NCBI GenBank assembly: GCA_964345775.1 | Contig: CAYFSO010000002.1 | Span: 15,679 to 79,678, forward strand | Reading direction: 5' to 3' | Source of the DNA: an uncultured Leptospiraceae bacterium | GTDB taxonomy: Bacteria > Spirochaetota > UBA4802 > UB4802 | DNA: 64,000 nt | Shown: positions 26,175 through 63,723 of the stretch, one piece after another | Numbering within the stretch: the first letter of the stretch is position 1 | Layout: every line of letters starts with the position of its first letter | Notes under the pieces: model-generated | Database searches by the model: none | What the model saw: the letters and a program-made list of their open reading frames with translations, nothing else | What the model was told of the DNA's origin: nothing | Translations under genes and position numbers: made by a program

Positions 26175-26366
26175 TCATCCACCGCCAGCGGAAGGGGCAC
26201 AGTTACCCCCCGATTTACCCGTTCCCGAAGAGGAGAAAAGAGAAAAAACCTTCTCGGTGAGATCAGAACCGCAGGAGGGGCATTTTCCTCCTGTAAAATC
26301 TCCCATTTTTCTCAGCTCGCTGAAGATCTCACCACACTGCCTGCATTTAAACTCGTACACCGGCAT
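26175..26366 (-). CDS. FmdB-family zinc-ribbon protein
   Basis: 63 aa MPVYEFKCRQCGEIF...GKCPSCGS, a characteristic CxxC...CxxC small regulator. Confidence 0.7.
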   Translation of the reverse strand: MPVYEFKCRQCGEIFSELRKMGDFTGGKCPSCGSDLTEKVFSLFSSSGTGKSGGNCAPSAGGG

Positions 26367-26537
26367 GGAACATTACCTCGTATTGCATTTGAACAAAATT
26401 TTATAAATAATCAATATTATGTTTGCACCACACAAACAAAAACGTATATTGTACGTGCGAATAACAACGACATGTTATAATTTTAGAATATACTTAACTC
26501 TTGCTCTTTTGTCAACATTTTATGTGGTAATTAATCG

Positions 26538-27860
26538 ATGAACCTTCTGACCATACTTTCTTTTCTTTCGTTCATTATGCTGGTTCCGCTGGCCGTAAAA
26601 GTAATGCAAACCGGTATACGAAGTACACTTCACCGGGTGTTTTTCTTCCTTGTCCTTGCCTTCATGATGGTAACCCTGCAGAGGCTAATGCTGAGCGTGG
26701 TGCAGGACCCTGGTACTGTTGACCTGGTGTACCGTTATCTTTCAGCGGGGATGTACCTGTTTCCCGGTATTGTTTTGCACCTGATACTTGTGATAACCCG
26801 GCGTGACTGGCTTCTGGGCCAGTGGTGGACATACCTGCTGTTGTATGGAATTGGTTTTATTCGAACGTATGAAGCGCTGACCGGGTTTTATACTATTGAA
26901 AAGGTTGTGTTGACCACATGGGGATGGCAGCCCATATACATGACGGGTTCCGCGTGGTACATGGTATATAATGTATACATGGTTCTGTTTGTATACGGTG
27001 GATTGCTGTACGCCCTGACCTGGAGCAGGTCTCATCCGCATCCCGCAGAGAAGAAGCAGGTAAAAATAGTTGTTTTCTCCATGATGCTGCTCAGCTTCCT
27101 GGGTATATGTACGGATTTTTTTCTGCCGGTTATGGGGATCAACTCGGTACCCCCGCTTGCACATGTATACCTTTCAATATGGTCACTGGGGATATGGTAT
27201 GCCATAAAGAAATACAGGCTTCTCAGTATCGGCTATTCAATCGCTTCAAGGGAAGTGGTGCAAATAGTCAACGATGCGGTTTTCATTACAGCATCTGATT
27301 ATACCATAGTTGATGTGAACCCGGCTGCCCGGGTTATGCTGGGGTATTCGCGAAAAGAGCTGGTATATACCCTCATTACCGGGTATATGCATGATGAACC
27401 CAGTAAGATCAGTCCAGCCTCTTTCCTGGATGAACATGGACGGGTGAAAGTAATACTGGATATGCCGGTAACTATGATCGCAAAGAATAAAACCCATATA
27501 CCGGTATCACTCTCCGTTTCAACGATAAAAAACAGGAAGGGGCACATACAGGGCATTATCATGGCAGCCAGGGATCTTACTATTAGAAGCGAACTTGAAA
27601 GAAGCAGGGATAAGCTCCTTGGTGAATTACAGGCGGCCATGGGTACCATAAAGCAGTTAACTGGTCTGCTTCCAATCTGTTCCCAGTGTAAGCGGATAAG
27701 GAACGAAGACGGCTCATGGCAGGAAATTGAAGTATACGTGCATGATCATTCAAATGCAGACTTTACCCATGGTATCTGCCCCGACTGCGTGCGAAAAATG
27801 TATCCAGATATCGCCGATTCAATCCTGGAAAAGCATTTCCCTGAGAAAAAGGGAACCTGA
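26538..27860 (+). CDS. Membrane sensor: N-terminal 7TM domain, PAS domain, C-terminal Cys/His-rich module (ICSQCKRIRNEDGSW...HGICPDC). No kinase or other output domain.
   Basis: Seven hydrophobic helices over about 230 aa, a PAS-like core (IVNDAVFITASDYTIVDVNPAARVMLGYSRKEL), and a C-terminal CxxC...H...H..CxxC motif. Confidence 0.6.
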   Translation: MNLLTILSFLSFIMLVPLAVKVMQTGIRSTLHRVFFFLVLAFMMVTLQRLMLSVVQDPGTVDLVYRYLSAGMYLFPGIVLHLILVITRRDWLLGQWWTYLLLYGIGFIRTYEALTGFYTIEKVVLTTWGWQPIYMTGSAWYMVYNVYMVLFVYGGLLYALTWSRSHPHPAEKKQVKIVVFSMMLLSFLGICTDFFLPVMGINSVPPLAHVYLSIWSLGIWYAIKKYRLLSIGYSIASREVVQIVNDAVFITASDYTIVDVNPAARVMLGYSRKELVYTLITGYMHDEPSKISPASFLDEHGRVKVILDMPVTMIAKNKTHIPVSLSVSTIKNRKGHIQGIIMAARDLTIRSELERSRDKLLGELQAAMGTIKQLTGLLPICSQCKRIRNEDGSWQEIEVYVHDHSNADFTHGICPDCVRKMYPDIADSILEKHFPEKKGT

Positions 27861-27973
27861 TAAAGCAATCCCCCGATAATTTCATGCCGCCAACGGTTTG
27901 TTGTGTCCTTCAAAAGGTGGCTTGACATCAGGCTGCAGCAATGCTTATATACACCATTGACGGGAAGGGGTAT

Positions 27974-28726
27974 ATGAATATTTTACTTACAAACGATGAC
28001 GGTATAGATGCTTCCGGGATCAGGGCCCTGTACACGATCCTGTCGCGGAAGCATGCGGTCTATATTGTAGCTCCGGATGGCGAGAGAAGTGCTTGCTCAA
28101 GCGCAATAACCATCAGAAGGAATATACAGGTACAGAAAAAGGGTGATGGAGTATACGCGATTGACGGCTATACTGCAGACTGTGTTAATATTGGATTGAA
28201 CGGGGAATTGATGCCTGAAATTGACCTGGTGATCTCGGGAATTAACCATGGGCCAAATCTGGGCGAAGACGTCTACTTCTCTGGCACGGTTGCCGGAGCA
28301 AGAAGTGCCCATATTTTCGGTGTAAGCGGTATTGCGGTATCGGTGGATTCCCTTGGAGAATCTGATTACTTTGAAGATGCGGCAGAATTCCTTATGGATT
28401 TCATAAGTGATTTTCCACTGTTTGCCCATGAAAGGCCTGTGCTTCTCAACATAAATTATCCCGATATTCCTGTTGATGAAATTGCCGGTGTCAGGTATAC
28501 CACGCTTGGGAAAAGGGAATACAGGGATTCGTACCATCGAAGTGGCGACAATAACGATGCGTTCAGCATGATGATGGACGGAATTATCGATTCTCATGAG
28601 ATCGAGGGAAGTGATGTAACCGAATTGCGAAAAGGATTCATATCAATTACACCAATAACACTTGATTGCACGGATTACCGGTATCTCAATAGTATCAAAA
28701 ACAGGGAAGAACAATGGCTGAAGTAA
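27974..28726 (+). CDS. surE: 5'/3'-nucleotidase SurE
   Basis: N-terminus MNILLTNDDGIDASGIRAL is the SurE signature DDG motif. Confidence 0.85.
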   Translation: MNILLTNDDGIDASGIRALYTILSRKHAVYIVAPDGERSACSSAITIRRNIQVQKKGDGVYAIDGYTADCVNIGLNGELMPEIDLVISGINHGPNLGEDVYFSGTVAGARSAHIFGVSGIAVSVDSLGESDYFEDAAEFLMDFISDFPLFAHERPVLLNINYPDIPVDEIAGVRYTTLGKREYRDSYHRSGDNNDAFSMMMDGIIDSHEIEGSDVTELRKGFISITPITLDCTDYRYLNSIKNREEQWLK

Positions 28727-29415
28727 GCTTGAACCAAAAGATCCGTACTTTTCTTGACCAGGCGTTTGGATTCCTTGATACGCGCAAGTACGGGCATGCC
28801 CTTGAGAAGCTGCTTAAAGCCGAAGAGCTGGACAGGGAAAATCCCGAGGTTCTTTATAATCTCGGGGTAACCTTTTCCAGGATGGGAGATTACCAGCGTG
28901 CAGTTGAATACCTCCGGCGGGTTAAGGAATTGCCTTCTTCGTTTGTTGACCTGCTAACCGTAAATCGGTTACTGGCGTACGCACTGATAATGCAGAACGG
29001 TTTTAGTGATGCCCACGAAGTAATAGATGAATCGTTACAGTTGTCAGCCGTAGATACCACCATGCTGAACATGAAAGGATATCTCTTTGAAAAAGAAGGC
29101 AAGCTGGAAGGGGCTGCTGATATTTTCCAGGCAATTCTGGACGTGGATCCTGAAAACATGAATGCCAACAATTCTCTTGCGTACGTACTTGCACGCATGA
29201 AAAAGGGAGACCATTCTCGTGCCCTGGAGTGCGCCAAAAAAGCATTTAACGCAAAGCCAGCCAACCCCGCCTATTGTGATACCCTTGGCTTCGTGTACAT
29301 GGTCAGGGGGCAGCCTGATTCTGCAAAGAAATACCTGAAAAAAGCACTCTCCATGGCTCCTGGCTCAAAAGAGGTAAGGGAGCATCTCAATACATTGCTG
29401 CAGCTGGACAGGTAA
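28714..29415 (+). CDS. TPR-repeat protein
   Basis: Multiple 34-aa TPR units (W-LG-Y-A-F-P patterns). Confidence 0.7.
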   Translation: MAEVSLNQKIRTFLDQAFGFLDTRKYGHALEKLLKAEELDRENPEVLYNLGVTFSRMGDYQRAVEYLRRVKELPSSFVDLLTVNRLLAYALIMQNGFSDAHEVIDESLQLSAVDTTMLNMKGYLFEKEGKLEGAADIFQAILDVDPENMNANNSLAYVLARMKKGDHSRALECAKKAFNAKPANPAYCDTLGFVYMVRGQPDSAKKYLKKALSMAPGSKEVREHLNTLLQLDR

Positions 29416-59755: not shown

Positions 59756-60343
59756 TTACGAGGAAAGGTGCTTTAAAGTTGTCTTTATAAGGACTTCAAT
59801 TGATAAATCCGGTTCTGAAGAAAGTATATCTTCAAGTACCGGTACAATCTTCTTCTCTTCAAAGCCGAGAGATGTTAATGCTTCAACAGCTTCCGATTTT
59901 GCAGTAGTTGGAACTGCGGTGCCCGGTGAAAGAGCCTCAAGCTGCTTGATCTTTCTGTTCAACTCAAAAAGCAGTTTTTCTGCCTTGCTTTTCCCGATGC
60001 CCGGGATCTTGATAAGCCTGTCAACACGGTTTGCGTGCACGGATTCAATCAGTTCTGGAACAGTAATGCCGGATAGAATGGACAACGCCATTGATGGCCC
60101 GATACCGGTAATATGTATAAGGAGAATGAACAACTTGCGTTCTTCGGGGGTGGCAAAGCCAAAAAGTTTTATCAGGTCTTCCCTTACATGAGTATATACA
60201 TGCAGGGTGATTTCACCAGGTGAAACATGCATTGTCTCATAGGTTGATATGGGGATATGCAGATGATATCCTACGCCCTGCACATCCAGTATCATTTCGG
60301 TTGGTCTTAAATCGGTAATTATTCCCCGTAAACTTCCGATCAT
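59756..60343 (-). CDS. ruvA: Holliday junction DNA helicase RuvA
   Basis: N-terminal OB domain MIGSLRG..., HhH motifs (IPGIGKSKAEKL), C-terminal domain III. Confidence 0.9.
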   Translation of the reverse strand: MIGSLRGIITDLRPTEMILDVQGVGYHLHIPISTYETMHVSPGEITLHVYTHVREDLIKLFGFATPEERKLFILLIHITGIGPSMALSILSGITVPELIESVHANRVDRLIKIPGIGKSKAEKLLFELNRKIKQLEALSPGTAVPTTAKSEAVEALTSLGFEEKKIVPVLEDILSSEPDLSIEVLIKTTLKHLSS

Positions 60344-60349
60344 CGGATA

Positions 60350-60841
60350 TTAGCCTCCACTGCGTAGTATTGCCTTCTGGCGGTCCATGCCAAGTGAATG
60401 ACAGAGTGCTATGGCAAGTGCATCGGCTGCGTCATCAGGACTGGGAAGTGATTGCAGGTTTAGTATGCGTTTTATCATTGCCTGCATCTGCTCCTTGGGG
60501 GCGTGGCCATATCCTGTCAAAGCCTGCTTTACCTGTGTTGGTGTATATTCAGTATATTCGATGGCGTTCATTCGGAGGGTGAGAACTATAACACCAAGGG
60601 CCTGTGCAACGTTAATGACTGTCCTGGTATTTTTTGATACGTACAGCTTTTCAAGCCCACACACCGCAGGAGAGTGAGCATGTATAATATCAGTCAGATC
60701 CCGGTGAATGTGAAGAAGTCTCTCTTCAAGGGGTTCGGATGCAGCAGTTTCAATTACCCCGTAGCCCCTGACCATCATATCTTTTCCCATGACAGCCCAG
60801 CCACATCTGCCAAAACCAGGGTCAATACCAAGGATACTCAC
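60350..60841 (-). CDS. ruvC: Holliday junction resolvase RuvC
   Basis: MSILGIDPG catalytic N-terminus, conserved acidic residues, 163 aa. Confidence 0.9.
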   Translation of the reverse strand: MSILGIDPGFGRCGWAVMGKDMMVRGYGVIETAASEPLEERLLHIHRDLTDIIHAHSPAVCGLEKLYVSKNTRTVINVAQALGVIVLTLRMNAIEYTEYTPTQVKQALTGYGHAPKEQMQAMIKRILNLQSLPSPDDAADALAIALCHSLGMDRQKAILRSGG

Positions 60842-61593
60842 TGTCCCTCGCTTAAGTTTGCCATAACCTCGTCCGATATATCGTAGTTTGAATAGACATT
60901 CTGTACGTCATCATGATCTTCAAGGAGGTCAATAAGCTTCATGCATTGTCGTGCCTTCTGTTCATCAAGCGGGATGGTAGTCTGCGGCACGAAAGTTATG
61001 TCATTATAGGTGACCTGGTACCCGATATCTTTTATGGCTTCCAGCACGTCATTGAAAAATTCCGGCGGCATTGTCACTGTGATATTCCCATCCTCTGTCT
61101 TGATGTCCTCTATATCATGTTCAAGCAACTGCTCTATCACGTCATCTTCAGATATATCAGATCCATCGACCATGATGATGCCTTTCCTGTCGAAAAGATA
61201 TGATACACATCCATTTTCACCAAGGTTACCGTTGTTCTTGGAGAAGATGGTGCGAATTTCGGGCATGGTCCTGTTCTTGTTGTCAGTGAGTACATCAGCC
61301 ATTATAGCCACGCCACCCGGACCGTACCCCTCGTACCTTGTTTCTTCGTACGTTGAACCCTCGAGCGCGCCGGTTCCTTTTTTTATTGCACGGTCAATGT
61401 TATCATTGGGCATGTTGTTCTCACGTGCCTTGTTTACTGCGGTCCTGAGGCGGGAATTTGAGTTCAGGTCGTCCCCACCTTCCCTGGCGGAAACGGTTAT
61501 TTCTCGAATTAGCTTGGTAAATATCTTGCCCTTTTTGGCATCCTGGGATGCCTTTCTATGCTTGATATTTGCCCACTTGGAATGTCCAGCCAT
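60838..61593 (-). CDS. yebC: YebC/PmpR-family transcriptional regulator
   Basis: MAGHSKWANIKHRK signature N-terminus, 251 aa. Classic yebC-ruvC-ruvA order. Confidence 0.9.
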   Translation of the reverse strand: MAGHSKWANIKHRKASQDAKKGKIFTKLIREITVSAREGGDDLNSNSRLRTAVNKARENNMPNDNIDRAIKKGTGALEGSTYEETRYEGYGPGGVAIMADVLTDNKNRTMPEIRTIFSKNNGNLGENGCVSYLFDRKGIIMVDGSDISEDDVIEQLLEHDIEDIKTEDGNITVTMPPEFFNDVLEAIKDIGYQVTYNDITFVPQTTIPLDEQKARQCMKLIDLLEDHDDVQNVYSNYDISDEVMANLSEGQ

Positions 61594-61650
61594 GTAATAC
61601 CTCTGTTCATTAAATATACGATAACAATTGTAGCGAACGGATGCAATTTT

Positions 61651-62955
61651 TCAATAGCCCCTGTTAATTTTCAACTGTAATTTTGATATTTTTTCCCGTG
61701 CTTTTCGTGGTTGATATGCCATTGCAAGGGCCTGGCGGTACCATTTAAGCGCTTCCTGGAGCTGATTGTCATGCTCATATGCATCAGCAAGGTTCCACCT
61801 TACCCTTCCCGGATTCAGCTTGTCCAGTTCATGTTTTTTCCTGCGTAATTCAAGTTCTTTGCGCGCTTTCTCTTCCACCGCGTACTCGTATTCAGTATAC
61901 GCGCTGTAATCCCTGTTCTTTAAAAGCGAGGACTTCAATGAATTAATTTTTTTATCAAGACTATTCACATCCGATTCAATTTTTTCAATTTCTTGAACCA
62001 GTTTTTCCTGGTACTGTATTGCACCTGTATAGTTCTGTATGGCAATTTTAAAGTTAAGCTCACTGAGATGTATGTCTCCTGAATACTCCATTGATTTGCC
62101 TCTACGGTACACATCCCCTTCGGGCAGCAGGTTCAATGCTTTCTCAAATGATGCAAGCGCCAGGGGATAATTCCCGGTACGGGCGTAACAGAGAGTGCCC
62201 AGGGCAAAGTGTATATTCGCATCATCGGGTTGAATTTCAAGGTATTCCCTGTAATATTTTACCGTGTTCAGGTGCCTTCCGGTCTCAGCGTGAAGGTTGG
62301 CAAGTGTTATATATAGAGATGCATCTTCCGGTGGTTTACTCCTTGACTGTACATATCGTTCAAGATGGTAAATTGCTCTTTTCTTTATTCCATGTCTTGC
62401 AAGGGATTTGCCAAGTTCAAGGGAGTAGTCATAGTTTTCGGGCTTAAGTTCATAGGCAGTTTCAAGTGCCGCATGGTAGGCTTTCACGTCCCCCCTTTTT
62501 TTATATACGCCTGCTATACGATAATAAACCGCATGGTCTTGTTCCGGTTTCAACACGCGATAGCGCAGCGATTGAACAAGGTGGTTCAATGACGTATCAA
62601 ATTGCTTTATTTCATCAGCACAGATACCAGCGTTGTAATGCAGGGTGAAAAGGTCGGGATTATTCTCGATAAAGAAAGGCTTTGCCTTTCTCTCTACAAA
62701 GAGCTTTTCAAGATCAATGCCTCTTTCTGCCTGCTTTACAGAAATGAAATCCGTTGGTATGCGCTTATCTCCAACCCTTTCTCCGTACTTCTCTGTGAGA
62801 ACCTGTTCAATCTGCTGAAGGGCCTTGGCGTATTCCCCATTCTGCATCAGGTTGGTGTATTCCGGTGTTCCTTCCTGGCCGGAGGCCGTTGCGATGCTGT
62901 ACTGGAAAAGGAAGGCAGCAAGCACTACCCTGATAAAACGGTACTTTATATTCAT
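61651..62955 (-). CDS. Secreted TPR-repeat protein
   Basis: Signal peptide, then multiple TPR units and a C-terminal coiled-coil segment. Confidence 0.7.
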   Translation of the reverse strand: MNIKYRFIRVVLAAFLFQYSIATASGQEGTPEYTNLMQNGEYAKALQQIEQVLTEKYGERVGDKRIPTDFISVKQAERGIDLEKLFVERKAKPFFIENNPDLFTLHYNAGICADEIKQFDTSLNHLVQSLRYRVLKPEQDHAVYYRIAGVYKKRGDVKAYHAALETAYELKPENYDYSLELGKSLARHGIKKRAIYHLERYVQSRSKPPEDASLYITLANLHAETGRHLNTVKYYREYLEIQPDDANIHFALGTLCYARTGNYPLALASFEKALNLLPEGDVYRRGKSMEYSGDIHLSELNFKIAIQNYTGAIQYQEKLVQEIEKIESDVNSLDKKINSLKSSLLKNRDYSAYTEYEYAVEEKARKELELRRKKHELDKLNPGRVRWNLADAYEHDNQLQEALKWYRQALAMAYQPRKAREKISKLQLKINRGY

Positions 62956-63108
62956 ATAGGTAATATCGGATATAATTATGGTTTTTTTACTGAATATTGA
63001 GCAGTTACATTATCAGAATGCATAGACACGGCCGCCCTGGTCACCTTCTCGGGTTGACTGTGCAGGGCAGGTGCTGTACTGTATTGTTGCAATGACCAGG
63101 GAAAGGTA

Positions 63109-63723
63109 TTATCGGCGAATACGTATCTTGCGGACCTGTCGCTTCTTGATCCTGGGTGCTCCTTCAGGATTGTATTTTTCCTGAACGTCCTCTGTTGGAT
63201 GGTTGATCAGCATGCGTACTACTTCTTCGGACCGGTTAAGTACATCGATCAATACAAGGTTCTCTTCAACAGGGAAATCCTTCAGGAGATACTCTTCCAT
63301 TTTCATTTCGTCTACGGGTTGCCCCACACCAATACGCACCTTGGCGAAACGATCTGATTTCAAAGCCCGGGTCATGGATAAAATGCCCGGGTGCTGTAAC
63401 TTGGAATAAATAGTGTCTATCCTGACATCACCAAGCTTCAGCGAAGTATCCTCAAGCACACAGATTATATCCTTCACGTTTATTCTGAGGAATGACGCGA
63501 TATAGAGTACTGATTCTCCAATGAGGTTGACAAAAGTCTGTGGTTTCAGCAGTACAACTTCTTCGCCGTCAATATTTCCTCTTCCGATGAGAGACTTCTT
63601 CTTCTTTACCCGGATGTCGATGTTTTCGTTATTGGCCAGAATATCAACAACCTTAAAGCCAATATTCTGCCGGTTGTTGAAATACTCTTCTCCTGGATTT
63701 CCAAAACCTACAATGAGTTTCAA
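63109..63723 (-). CDS. pth: Peptidyl-tRNA hydrolase
   Basis: N-terminus MKLIVGFGNPG..Y..RQNIGF and catalytic His in the GNPG context, about 200 aa. Confidence 0.9.
   Translation of the reverse strand: MKLIVGFGNPGEEYFNNRQNIGFKVVDILANNENIDIRVKKKKSLIGRGNIDGEEVVLLKPQTFVNLIGESVLYIASFLRINVKDIICVLEDTSLKLGDVRIDTIYSKLQHPGILSMTRALKSDRFAKVRIGVGQPVDEMKMEEYLLKDFPVEENLVLIDVLNRSEEVVRMLINHPTEDVQEKYNPEGAPRIKKRQVRKIRIRR

Follow-up and report, generated by a model that had tools for sequence, protein, structure and literature searches.

The window, as we call the whole 64-kb stretch of DNA analysed here, encodes a membrane PAS sensor that ends in a compact, cysteine-rich module, and we propose that this module is itself the output of the protein. 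We give a probability of roughly 0.55 to the reading in which the module is an effector, stabilised by metal, that binds a protein or ligand and is driven by the sensor through a dimeric coiled coil. The modular layout of the PAS sensor is of a known kind; the interest lies in what is found at the level of the module family. A large group of 'output-less' bacterial sensors shares this one compact, conserved C-terminal module, in at least 19,000 clusters at 50% identity. A broader proposal, which we hold tentatively and at a little under even odds, is that the Cys4 tail is an undescribed and very widespread bacterial signalling effector, coupled by a fixed coiled coil to PAS, REC, GAF, HAMP and membrane sensors, acting by metal-dependent binding of a conserved target in the cell, and forming a new class of output beside kinase, cyclase, phosphodiesterase and HTH domains.

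The sensor gene and its N-terminal domains

The sensor gene occupies 26538..27860 on the + strand and encodes 440 residues from an ATG start in the list of open reading frames, with its stop codon at 27858-27860. The protein is encoded without any change of residue on four independent contigs from metagenomes, a microbial-mat assembly among them, and an orthologue (P0031) is 82% identical and of equal length, so the reading frame represents a real, conserved gene. Its neighbours are a ProC-like reductase, an FmdB-type Zn_ribbon_8 gene on the opposite strand, surE and a TPR gene, and the same set of neighbours was found again on three more contigs from metagenomes. None of the adjacent genes in the window is a signalling partner, in keeping with the initial annotation, in which the gene appeared isolated.

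Downstream, a gap of 80 bp separates the sensor gene from surE (27941-28726, + strand), whose end overlaps the start of the TPR-repeat gene (28714-29415, + strand) by 13 bp; this overlap suggests that surE and the TPR gene form one operon. No terminator-like site was found on the + strand within the 80-bp gap, and on this basis the sensor gene, surE and the TPR gene may be co-transcribed. The possibility that a frameshifted kinase domain lies 3' of the sensor gene had been raised earlier; no kinase ORF, intact or frameshifted, was found there, the 80 bp being followed directly by surE.

Upstream lies a divergent, AT-rich intergenic region of 171 bp (26367..26537), in which a consensus scan picked out promoter-like hexamers on both strands, in numbers not above those of shuffled sequences. 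Beyond it, and divergent from the sensor gene, is the FmdB/Zn_ribbon_8-type ORF (26175-26366, - strand; 63 aa, MPVYEFKCRQCGEIF...CPSCGS...), which is paired with the sensor gene on three further contigs. That a Cys4 FmdB-type protein, of an unrelated kind, stands beside a Cys4-tailed sensor is probably a coincidence. No rRNA, tRNA, tmRNA or Rfam features were found within the window. Its cumulative GC skew climbs steadily over roughly the first 60 kb and falls from there on, the turning point coinciding with the switch of large ORFs to the - strand (59756-63723).

The N-terminal membrane domain (aa 1-226; 26538..27215, + strand) appears to contain about seven helices. Five strong and two weaker, aromatic-rich hydrophobic segments were identified by hydropathy, and the charges of the loops fit a seven-helix topology with the N-terminus out and the C-terminus in, according to the positive-inside rule. 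Seven long helices were also placed within aa 3-226 by a full-length AF2 model, which was built from four sequences and, with a pLDDT of 37.7, is of low confidence and good for helix counting only. The seven-helix domain described in the initial annotation thus stands as likely but not proven. Pfam searches (E<=10) of this domain gave no match to HisKA_7TM, MASE3 or 7TMR-DISM. Direct comparison likewise detected no kinship with the first two: an hhalign alignment to a carrier of HisKA_7TM covers the PAS domain and tail only, and a BLASTP alignment to a carrier of MASE3 is likewise confined to the PAS domain and tail. A word-indexed database search with aa 1-241 (26538-27260) returned zero matches, not recovering the identical protein either, which the collection does contain; we take such an empty result for long membrane proteins to be a limit of the index and no proof of absence.

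The membrane domain is followed by a PAS domain without cysteines (aa 240-350; 27255..27587, + strand), which had been described as PAS-like and is confirmed here by both Pfam and NCBIfam profiles. The Pfam matches at aa 240-351, to PAS_9 (47.3 bits, cut-off 27, E 2.7e-12), PAS (35.3 bits, cut-off 22.6, E 1.3e-8) and PAS_4 (25.0 bits, cut-off 23.1), and the NCBIfam match to TIGR00229 (44.8 bits, cut-off 22.9, E 1.2e-11) all lie above the curated cut-offs and place the domain in the PAS superfamily. It terminates in D346-L-T, corresponding to the 'DIT' motif of the family. No match to HisKA, HATPase_c, GGDEF, EAL or HTH models was obtained for the protein in Pfam or NCBIfam at E<=10, which bears out the earlier observation that it has no recognisable transmitter or output such as a kinase, cyclase or HTH domain. 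Weak matches to NCBIfam kinase models are restricted to the PAS region, and the protein lacks both the HisKA/DHp H-box and the HATPase_c domain of a sensor histidine kinase.

The linker helix and the Cys4 module

The conserved module (aa 378-423; 27669..27806, + strand) is supported by a six-frame motif scan, profile searches, residue conservation and AF2 modelling, and reads LPIC381xxC384KRIRNEDGSW394...H404S...FTH411GIC414PDC417VRKMYP. Its CSQC...CPDC stretch (aa 381-417, nt 27678-27788) is the sole motif of this kind in the six frames of the window. No paralogous copies of the module occur in the window, and each of the loci fetched carries a single one. Comparison with the orthologue shows the module to be the best conserved segment of the protein: it is 93% identical, the membrane part 83%, the PAS domain 78% and the poorly conserved C-terminal extension that follows the module (aa 424-440; 27807..27857, + strand) 65%.

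A family profile, built from seven tails, was compared with the representatives of 1.84 billion clusters and matched 24,078 clusters at 50% identity with E<=1e-3, 19,473 with E<=1e-10 and 446 with E<=1e-30. Single-copy homologues score up to E 1e-37, and the orthologue of the window protein 3e-37, so the tail is a conserved domain and not a chance pattern of cysteines. Module statistics were taken from 319 module copies in 285 fetched proteins, drawn from the top-scoring profile matches. The CxxC-x29-CxxC motif spans 37 residues in 315 of the 319, and the module stands close to the end of the protein, the last cysteine being followed by 17 residues in the median copy, usually by 10-25, and by 30 or fewer in 270 of the 319 copies; in the window protein 23 residues follow C417.

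All four cysteines are 100% conserved across 304 family modules, and the proline before Cys1 and the tryptophan at +14 are likewise invariant. Other positions come close, namely Gly+12 (99%), Lys+5 (96%), Arg+8 and Asp+10 (both 95%), Glu+18 (94%) and Tyr+20 (93%). The window protein has all the hallmarks of the family (P379, C381, C384, W394, C414 and C417), and over the set K5, R8, D10, G12, Y13, E18, Y20, H24, S25, F29, H31 and G32 it deviates only at D10, which is E390, and Y13, which is S393. The two histidines are conserved in 83% and 89% of modules, and both are missing from 15 of 301. Since the cysteines are invariant and the histidines are not, we describe this as a Cys4 site with two frequent histidines, in place of the Cys2-His2-Cys2 metal-binding module proposed initially.

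Between the PAS domain and the module lies a linker helix (aa 351-377; 27588..27668, + strand), recognised from its heptad spacing, from the distance between the DIT motif and Cys1, and from helix 2-20 of the tail model. Heptad a/d positions are taken by L353, L360, L364, A367, I371 and L374, and L378 carries the pattern on. Across the family, hydrophobic columns at -20, -16, -13, -9, -6 and -2 before Cys1 give a 4-3-4-3-4 heptad pattern that ends in G-L-L-P-I-C. The PAS motif 'D-[ILVM]-[TS]' (DIT) precedes Cys1 by 35 residues, or five heptads, in 99 of 114 cases, and the window protein has the same distance from D346 to C381. The profile includes part of the linker and the architecture and linker statistics come from its top-scoring matches, so these figures are biased to canonical members. 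From this spacing it can be proposed that the linkers form a parallel, dimeric coiled coil and transmit the signal from the PAS domain to the two modules at its end. The linker of the module follows a logic similar to that of the signalling helices of kinases and cyclases (PMC1592074).

For the tail, AF2 modelling with an 88-sequence alignment gave a best model with a pLDDT of 91.9, the remaining four models having values of 72-80. The best model runs in the order linker helix, strand, helix, helix, strand, helix, helix, and each CxxC is positioned at a strand-to-helix junction, not in a hairpin. The initial annotation had suggested checking for a zinc-ribbon fold. This classical fold, in which two zinc knuckles in beta-hairpins make up a three-stranded sheet, was not recovered, as the best model is beta-alpha-alpha-beta-alpha, and a short hairpin appears only in the low-confidence full-length model (pLDDT 37.7), in which the tail differs locally.

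Profile and structure searches, made with the prospect in mind that the tail might belong to a known, characterised family, gave no significant match in Pfam, NCBIfam, PDB sequences or PDB folds. When 88 isolated tails were compared with Pfam at E<=5, sub-threshold matches were to DUF3039 (63 of the 88), zf-C4pol (47 of the 88), assorted ribbons and Fin/Gin, and all the zinc-ribbon matches lie below the cut-off. PDB sequence searches, with the single protein and with the profile, yielded non-significant similarities to the Rad50 hook and PerR (E>0.1). The CxxC-x29-CxxC spacing is the same as that of rubredoxin; homology to rubredoxin was nevertheless rejected, with an hhalign probability of 1.7% over 6 aligned residues. 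No model for the module is present in a 2025 copy of Pfam or in NCBIfam release 20, and there is no solved structure. Full-text literature searches, whose coverage was incomplete, found no published description of it. The only Cys/zinc modules in the S-helix paper (PMC1592074) and the census of archaeal two-component systems (PMC5847659) are HalOD2 and TackOD1, which look unrelated.

Proteins that carry the module

Pfam domains identified in 116 carriers include PAS (58), REC (12), HAMP (5), GAF (5), MASE3 (3), HisKA_7TM (2) and dCache (2), with single cases of PocR, MASE1, CHASE3, 4HB_MCP, CHASE8 and a Tll0287-like domain. The 25 families listed for these carriers contain no output domain and none of them covers the tail. 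Similarly, no GGDEF motif, kinase H-box or G-box was found in 150 representatives. In one carrier the module comes after a Reg_prop/Y_Y_Y periplasmic sensor, and many of the carriers span the membrane several times. In the proteins with the highest scores the module is present twice, in tandem units of the form [MASE6-module]x2 or [REC-module]x2. Two sensor-plus-module units within a single polypeptide are seen in P0008, P0012, P0020, P0023, P0026 and about 30 other representatives; in some tandem proteins the cysteine pattern of the second copy has been partly lost.

Names in public sources follow the sensor part of these proteins, for example 'PAS domain S-box protein', 'integral membrane sensor domain MASE1' or simply 'hypothetical protein'. 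By source names and records the carriers include Desulfobacterota and Bacteroidota, with a homologue of the tail in Desulfobacula; the phage collections gave no match to the module. No partner gene is common to the neighbourhoods of nine family members, a usual situation for sensors that are self-contained.

A plasmid of the gammaproteobacterium Dongshaea marina (NZ_CP028898.1; L009 5001-5138) carries an unannotated module stretch with 56% identity to the consensus, flanked by IS21 and IS91 transposase genes, which looks like a gene remnant. One short stand-alone module gene (L006 6232-8417) abuts a DDE transposase gene and has a cluster-mate of 286 aa; another short module gene (L010 1637-2256) overlaps an upstream ORF for a Tll0287-like sensor, as if split by a frameshift. 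Some of the apparent stand-alone short module genes are probably artefacts.

Proposed function and comparison with known systems

We propose a membrane sensor made up of about seven transmembrane helices, a cytoplasmic PAS domain, a five-heptad dimeric signalling helix and the module of ~46 residues. The four invariant cysteines would hold one metal ion, probably zinc, as a Zn(Cys)4 site. A signal sensed by the membrane part or the PAS domain would cause a helical shift along the coiled coil, which would move the two modules of the dimer relative to each other and thereby alter the binding of a target, more probably a conserved protein or small ligand than DNA. Metal binding by the four cysteines is suggested by their strict conservation in sequence, and dimerisation of the sensor and a target other than DNA are likewise elements that we infer.

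The output position of the module is supported by domain architecture. It ends many proteins with unrelated types of sensor and receiver domain, REC among them, a combinatorial use that would be expected of an effector domain in modular signalling proteins. The fixed five-heptad linker after the PAS domain and the 93% identity of the module between orthologues add to this, and the suggestion in the initial annotation that the C-terminal module could itself be the output is strengthened accordingly. The residues K385, R388, E398, Y400, H404, S405 and H411, which are polar and invariant or near-invariant, suggest a conserved binding surface, and such a surface could bind a target common to several phyla. 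Against an effector role, no homology ties the module to any activity. Position alone is also no proof of an output role, because C-terminal sensor domains exist, for example CZB in chemoreceptors.

The module might instead be a DNA- or RNA-binding zinc finger of the Cys4 type, making the protein a membrane-tethered, one-component regulator of transcription or RNA. Cys4 fingers often bind nucleic acids, residues K385, K/R386 and R388 are conserved, the recurring weak Pfam matches are to zinc-finger families, and the proteins in which the module follows REC have the look of response regulators, for which DNA binding would be the usual output. Yet the 47-residue module has a mean net charge of -1.3 in the family and -3 in the window protein, and many of its carriers are polytopic membrane proteins, so a typical DNA-binding finger is disfavoured, and with it the nucleic-acid binding offered as an example when the tail was first described. 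The neighbourhoods examined contain no conserved adjacent target genes, and no nucleic-acid-binding family in Pfam scores above its threshold with the isolated tails. We regard this explanation as unlikely.

Slightly less probable again is that the module is a sensor or switch, its Cys4 (+His) site responding to oxidants or binding iron or another metal, with signalling through binding of a partner by the PAS domain or coiled coil. Thiol-based switches and C-terminal zinc-binding sensor domains offer parallels, the four cysteines and two frequent histidines would suit such a site, the exact protein occurs in microbial-mat and other metagenomes, and the spacing of the cysteines is that of rubredoxin. 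The profile comparison with rubredoxin was negative, however, and surface residues that are not ligands are as strongly conserved as the cysteines. A sensory role would, moreover, leave the REC-module and sensor-module proteins without any output.

We think it improbable that the module is a structural cap or dimerisation clasp resembling the Rad50 zinc hook, in proteins that heterodimerise with kinases or titrate them. A CxxC directly after a coiled coil would be in place in such a clasp, and the Rad50 hook is the only PDB sequence similarity that spans the helix, but at E 0.16 this is not significant. About 20 near-invariant residues beyond the cysteines are more than a clasp needs, and apparent short genes for a coil plus module exist, some seemingly truncated or frameshifted. 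Decay of a histidine kinase or cyclase, leaving the tail as a remnant, is effectively refuted: a PAS domain plus helix does normally precede a kinase DHp domain, and there are the weak kinase matches in the PAS region, but surE follows after 80 bp, the identical ORF stands on four contigs beside an 82%-identical orthologue of equal length, and the tail belongs to a huge conserved family.

If the effector reading is correct, many entries now called 'PAS domain S-box protein', 'response regulator' or 'hypothetical' would gain an identifiable output, and defining the module would improve their annotation. It would also give a handle on what these sensors control, in the form of a 46-residue domain with four cysteines to mutate and a fixed coiled-coil coupling; with the version fused to REC, function could be approached directly by two-component genetics.

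Several known systems invite comparison. The 7TM receptors (HisKA_7TM, PF16927; MASE3, PF17159; 7TMR-DISM) similarly begin with about seven helices and continue into cytoplasmic signalling domains, and HisKA_7TM and MASE3 are present in other carriers of the tail, whereas the membrane domain of the window protein matches none of them. With the small Cys4 domains (zinc ribbons, zf-C4pol, DUF3039, rubredoxin and the Rad50 zinc hook) the module shares two CxxC knuckles, the second of them CPxC. PAS-linked histidine kinases and S-helix receptors have the same succession of a membrane or cytoplasmic sensor, a PAS domain ending in a DIT-like motif, a heptad helix of constrained length and an effector (PMC1592074). 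The helix here, in contrast, enters a 46-residue Cys4 module and not a DHp/HATPase_c, GGDEF or cyclase domain, and the module proteins have neither a phosphoacceptor H-box nor ATP-binding motifs. HalOD2, an uncharacterised archaeal output domain found behind REC, has two conserved CXXC motifs and is a predicted Zn finger (PMC5847659). By its description it is set apart from the module: HalOD2 is confined to a few halobacteria, with 20-25 residues between its CXXC motifs and a HalX-like N-terminal part (PMC5847659), whereas the module has a spacing of 29 residues and forms a very large bacterial family joined to many types of sensor.
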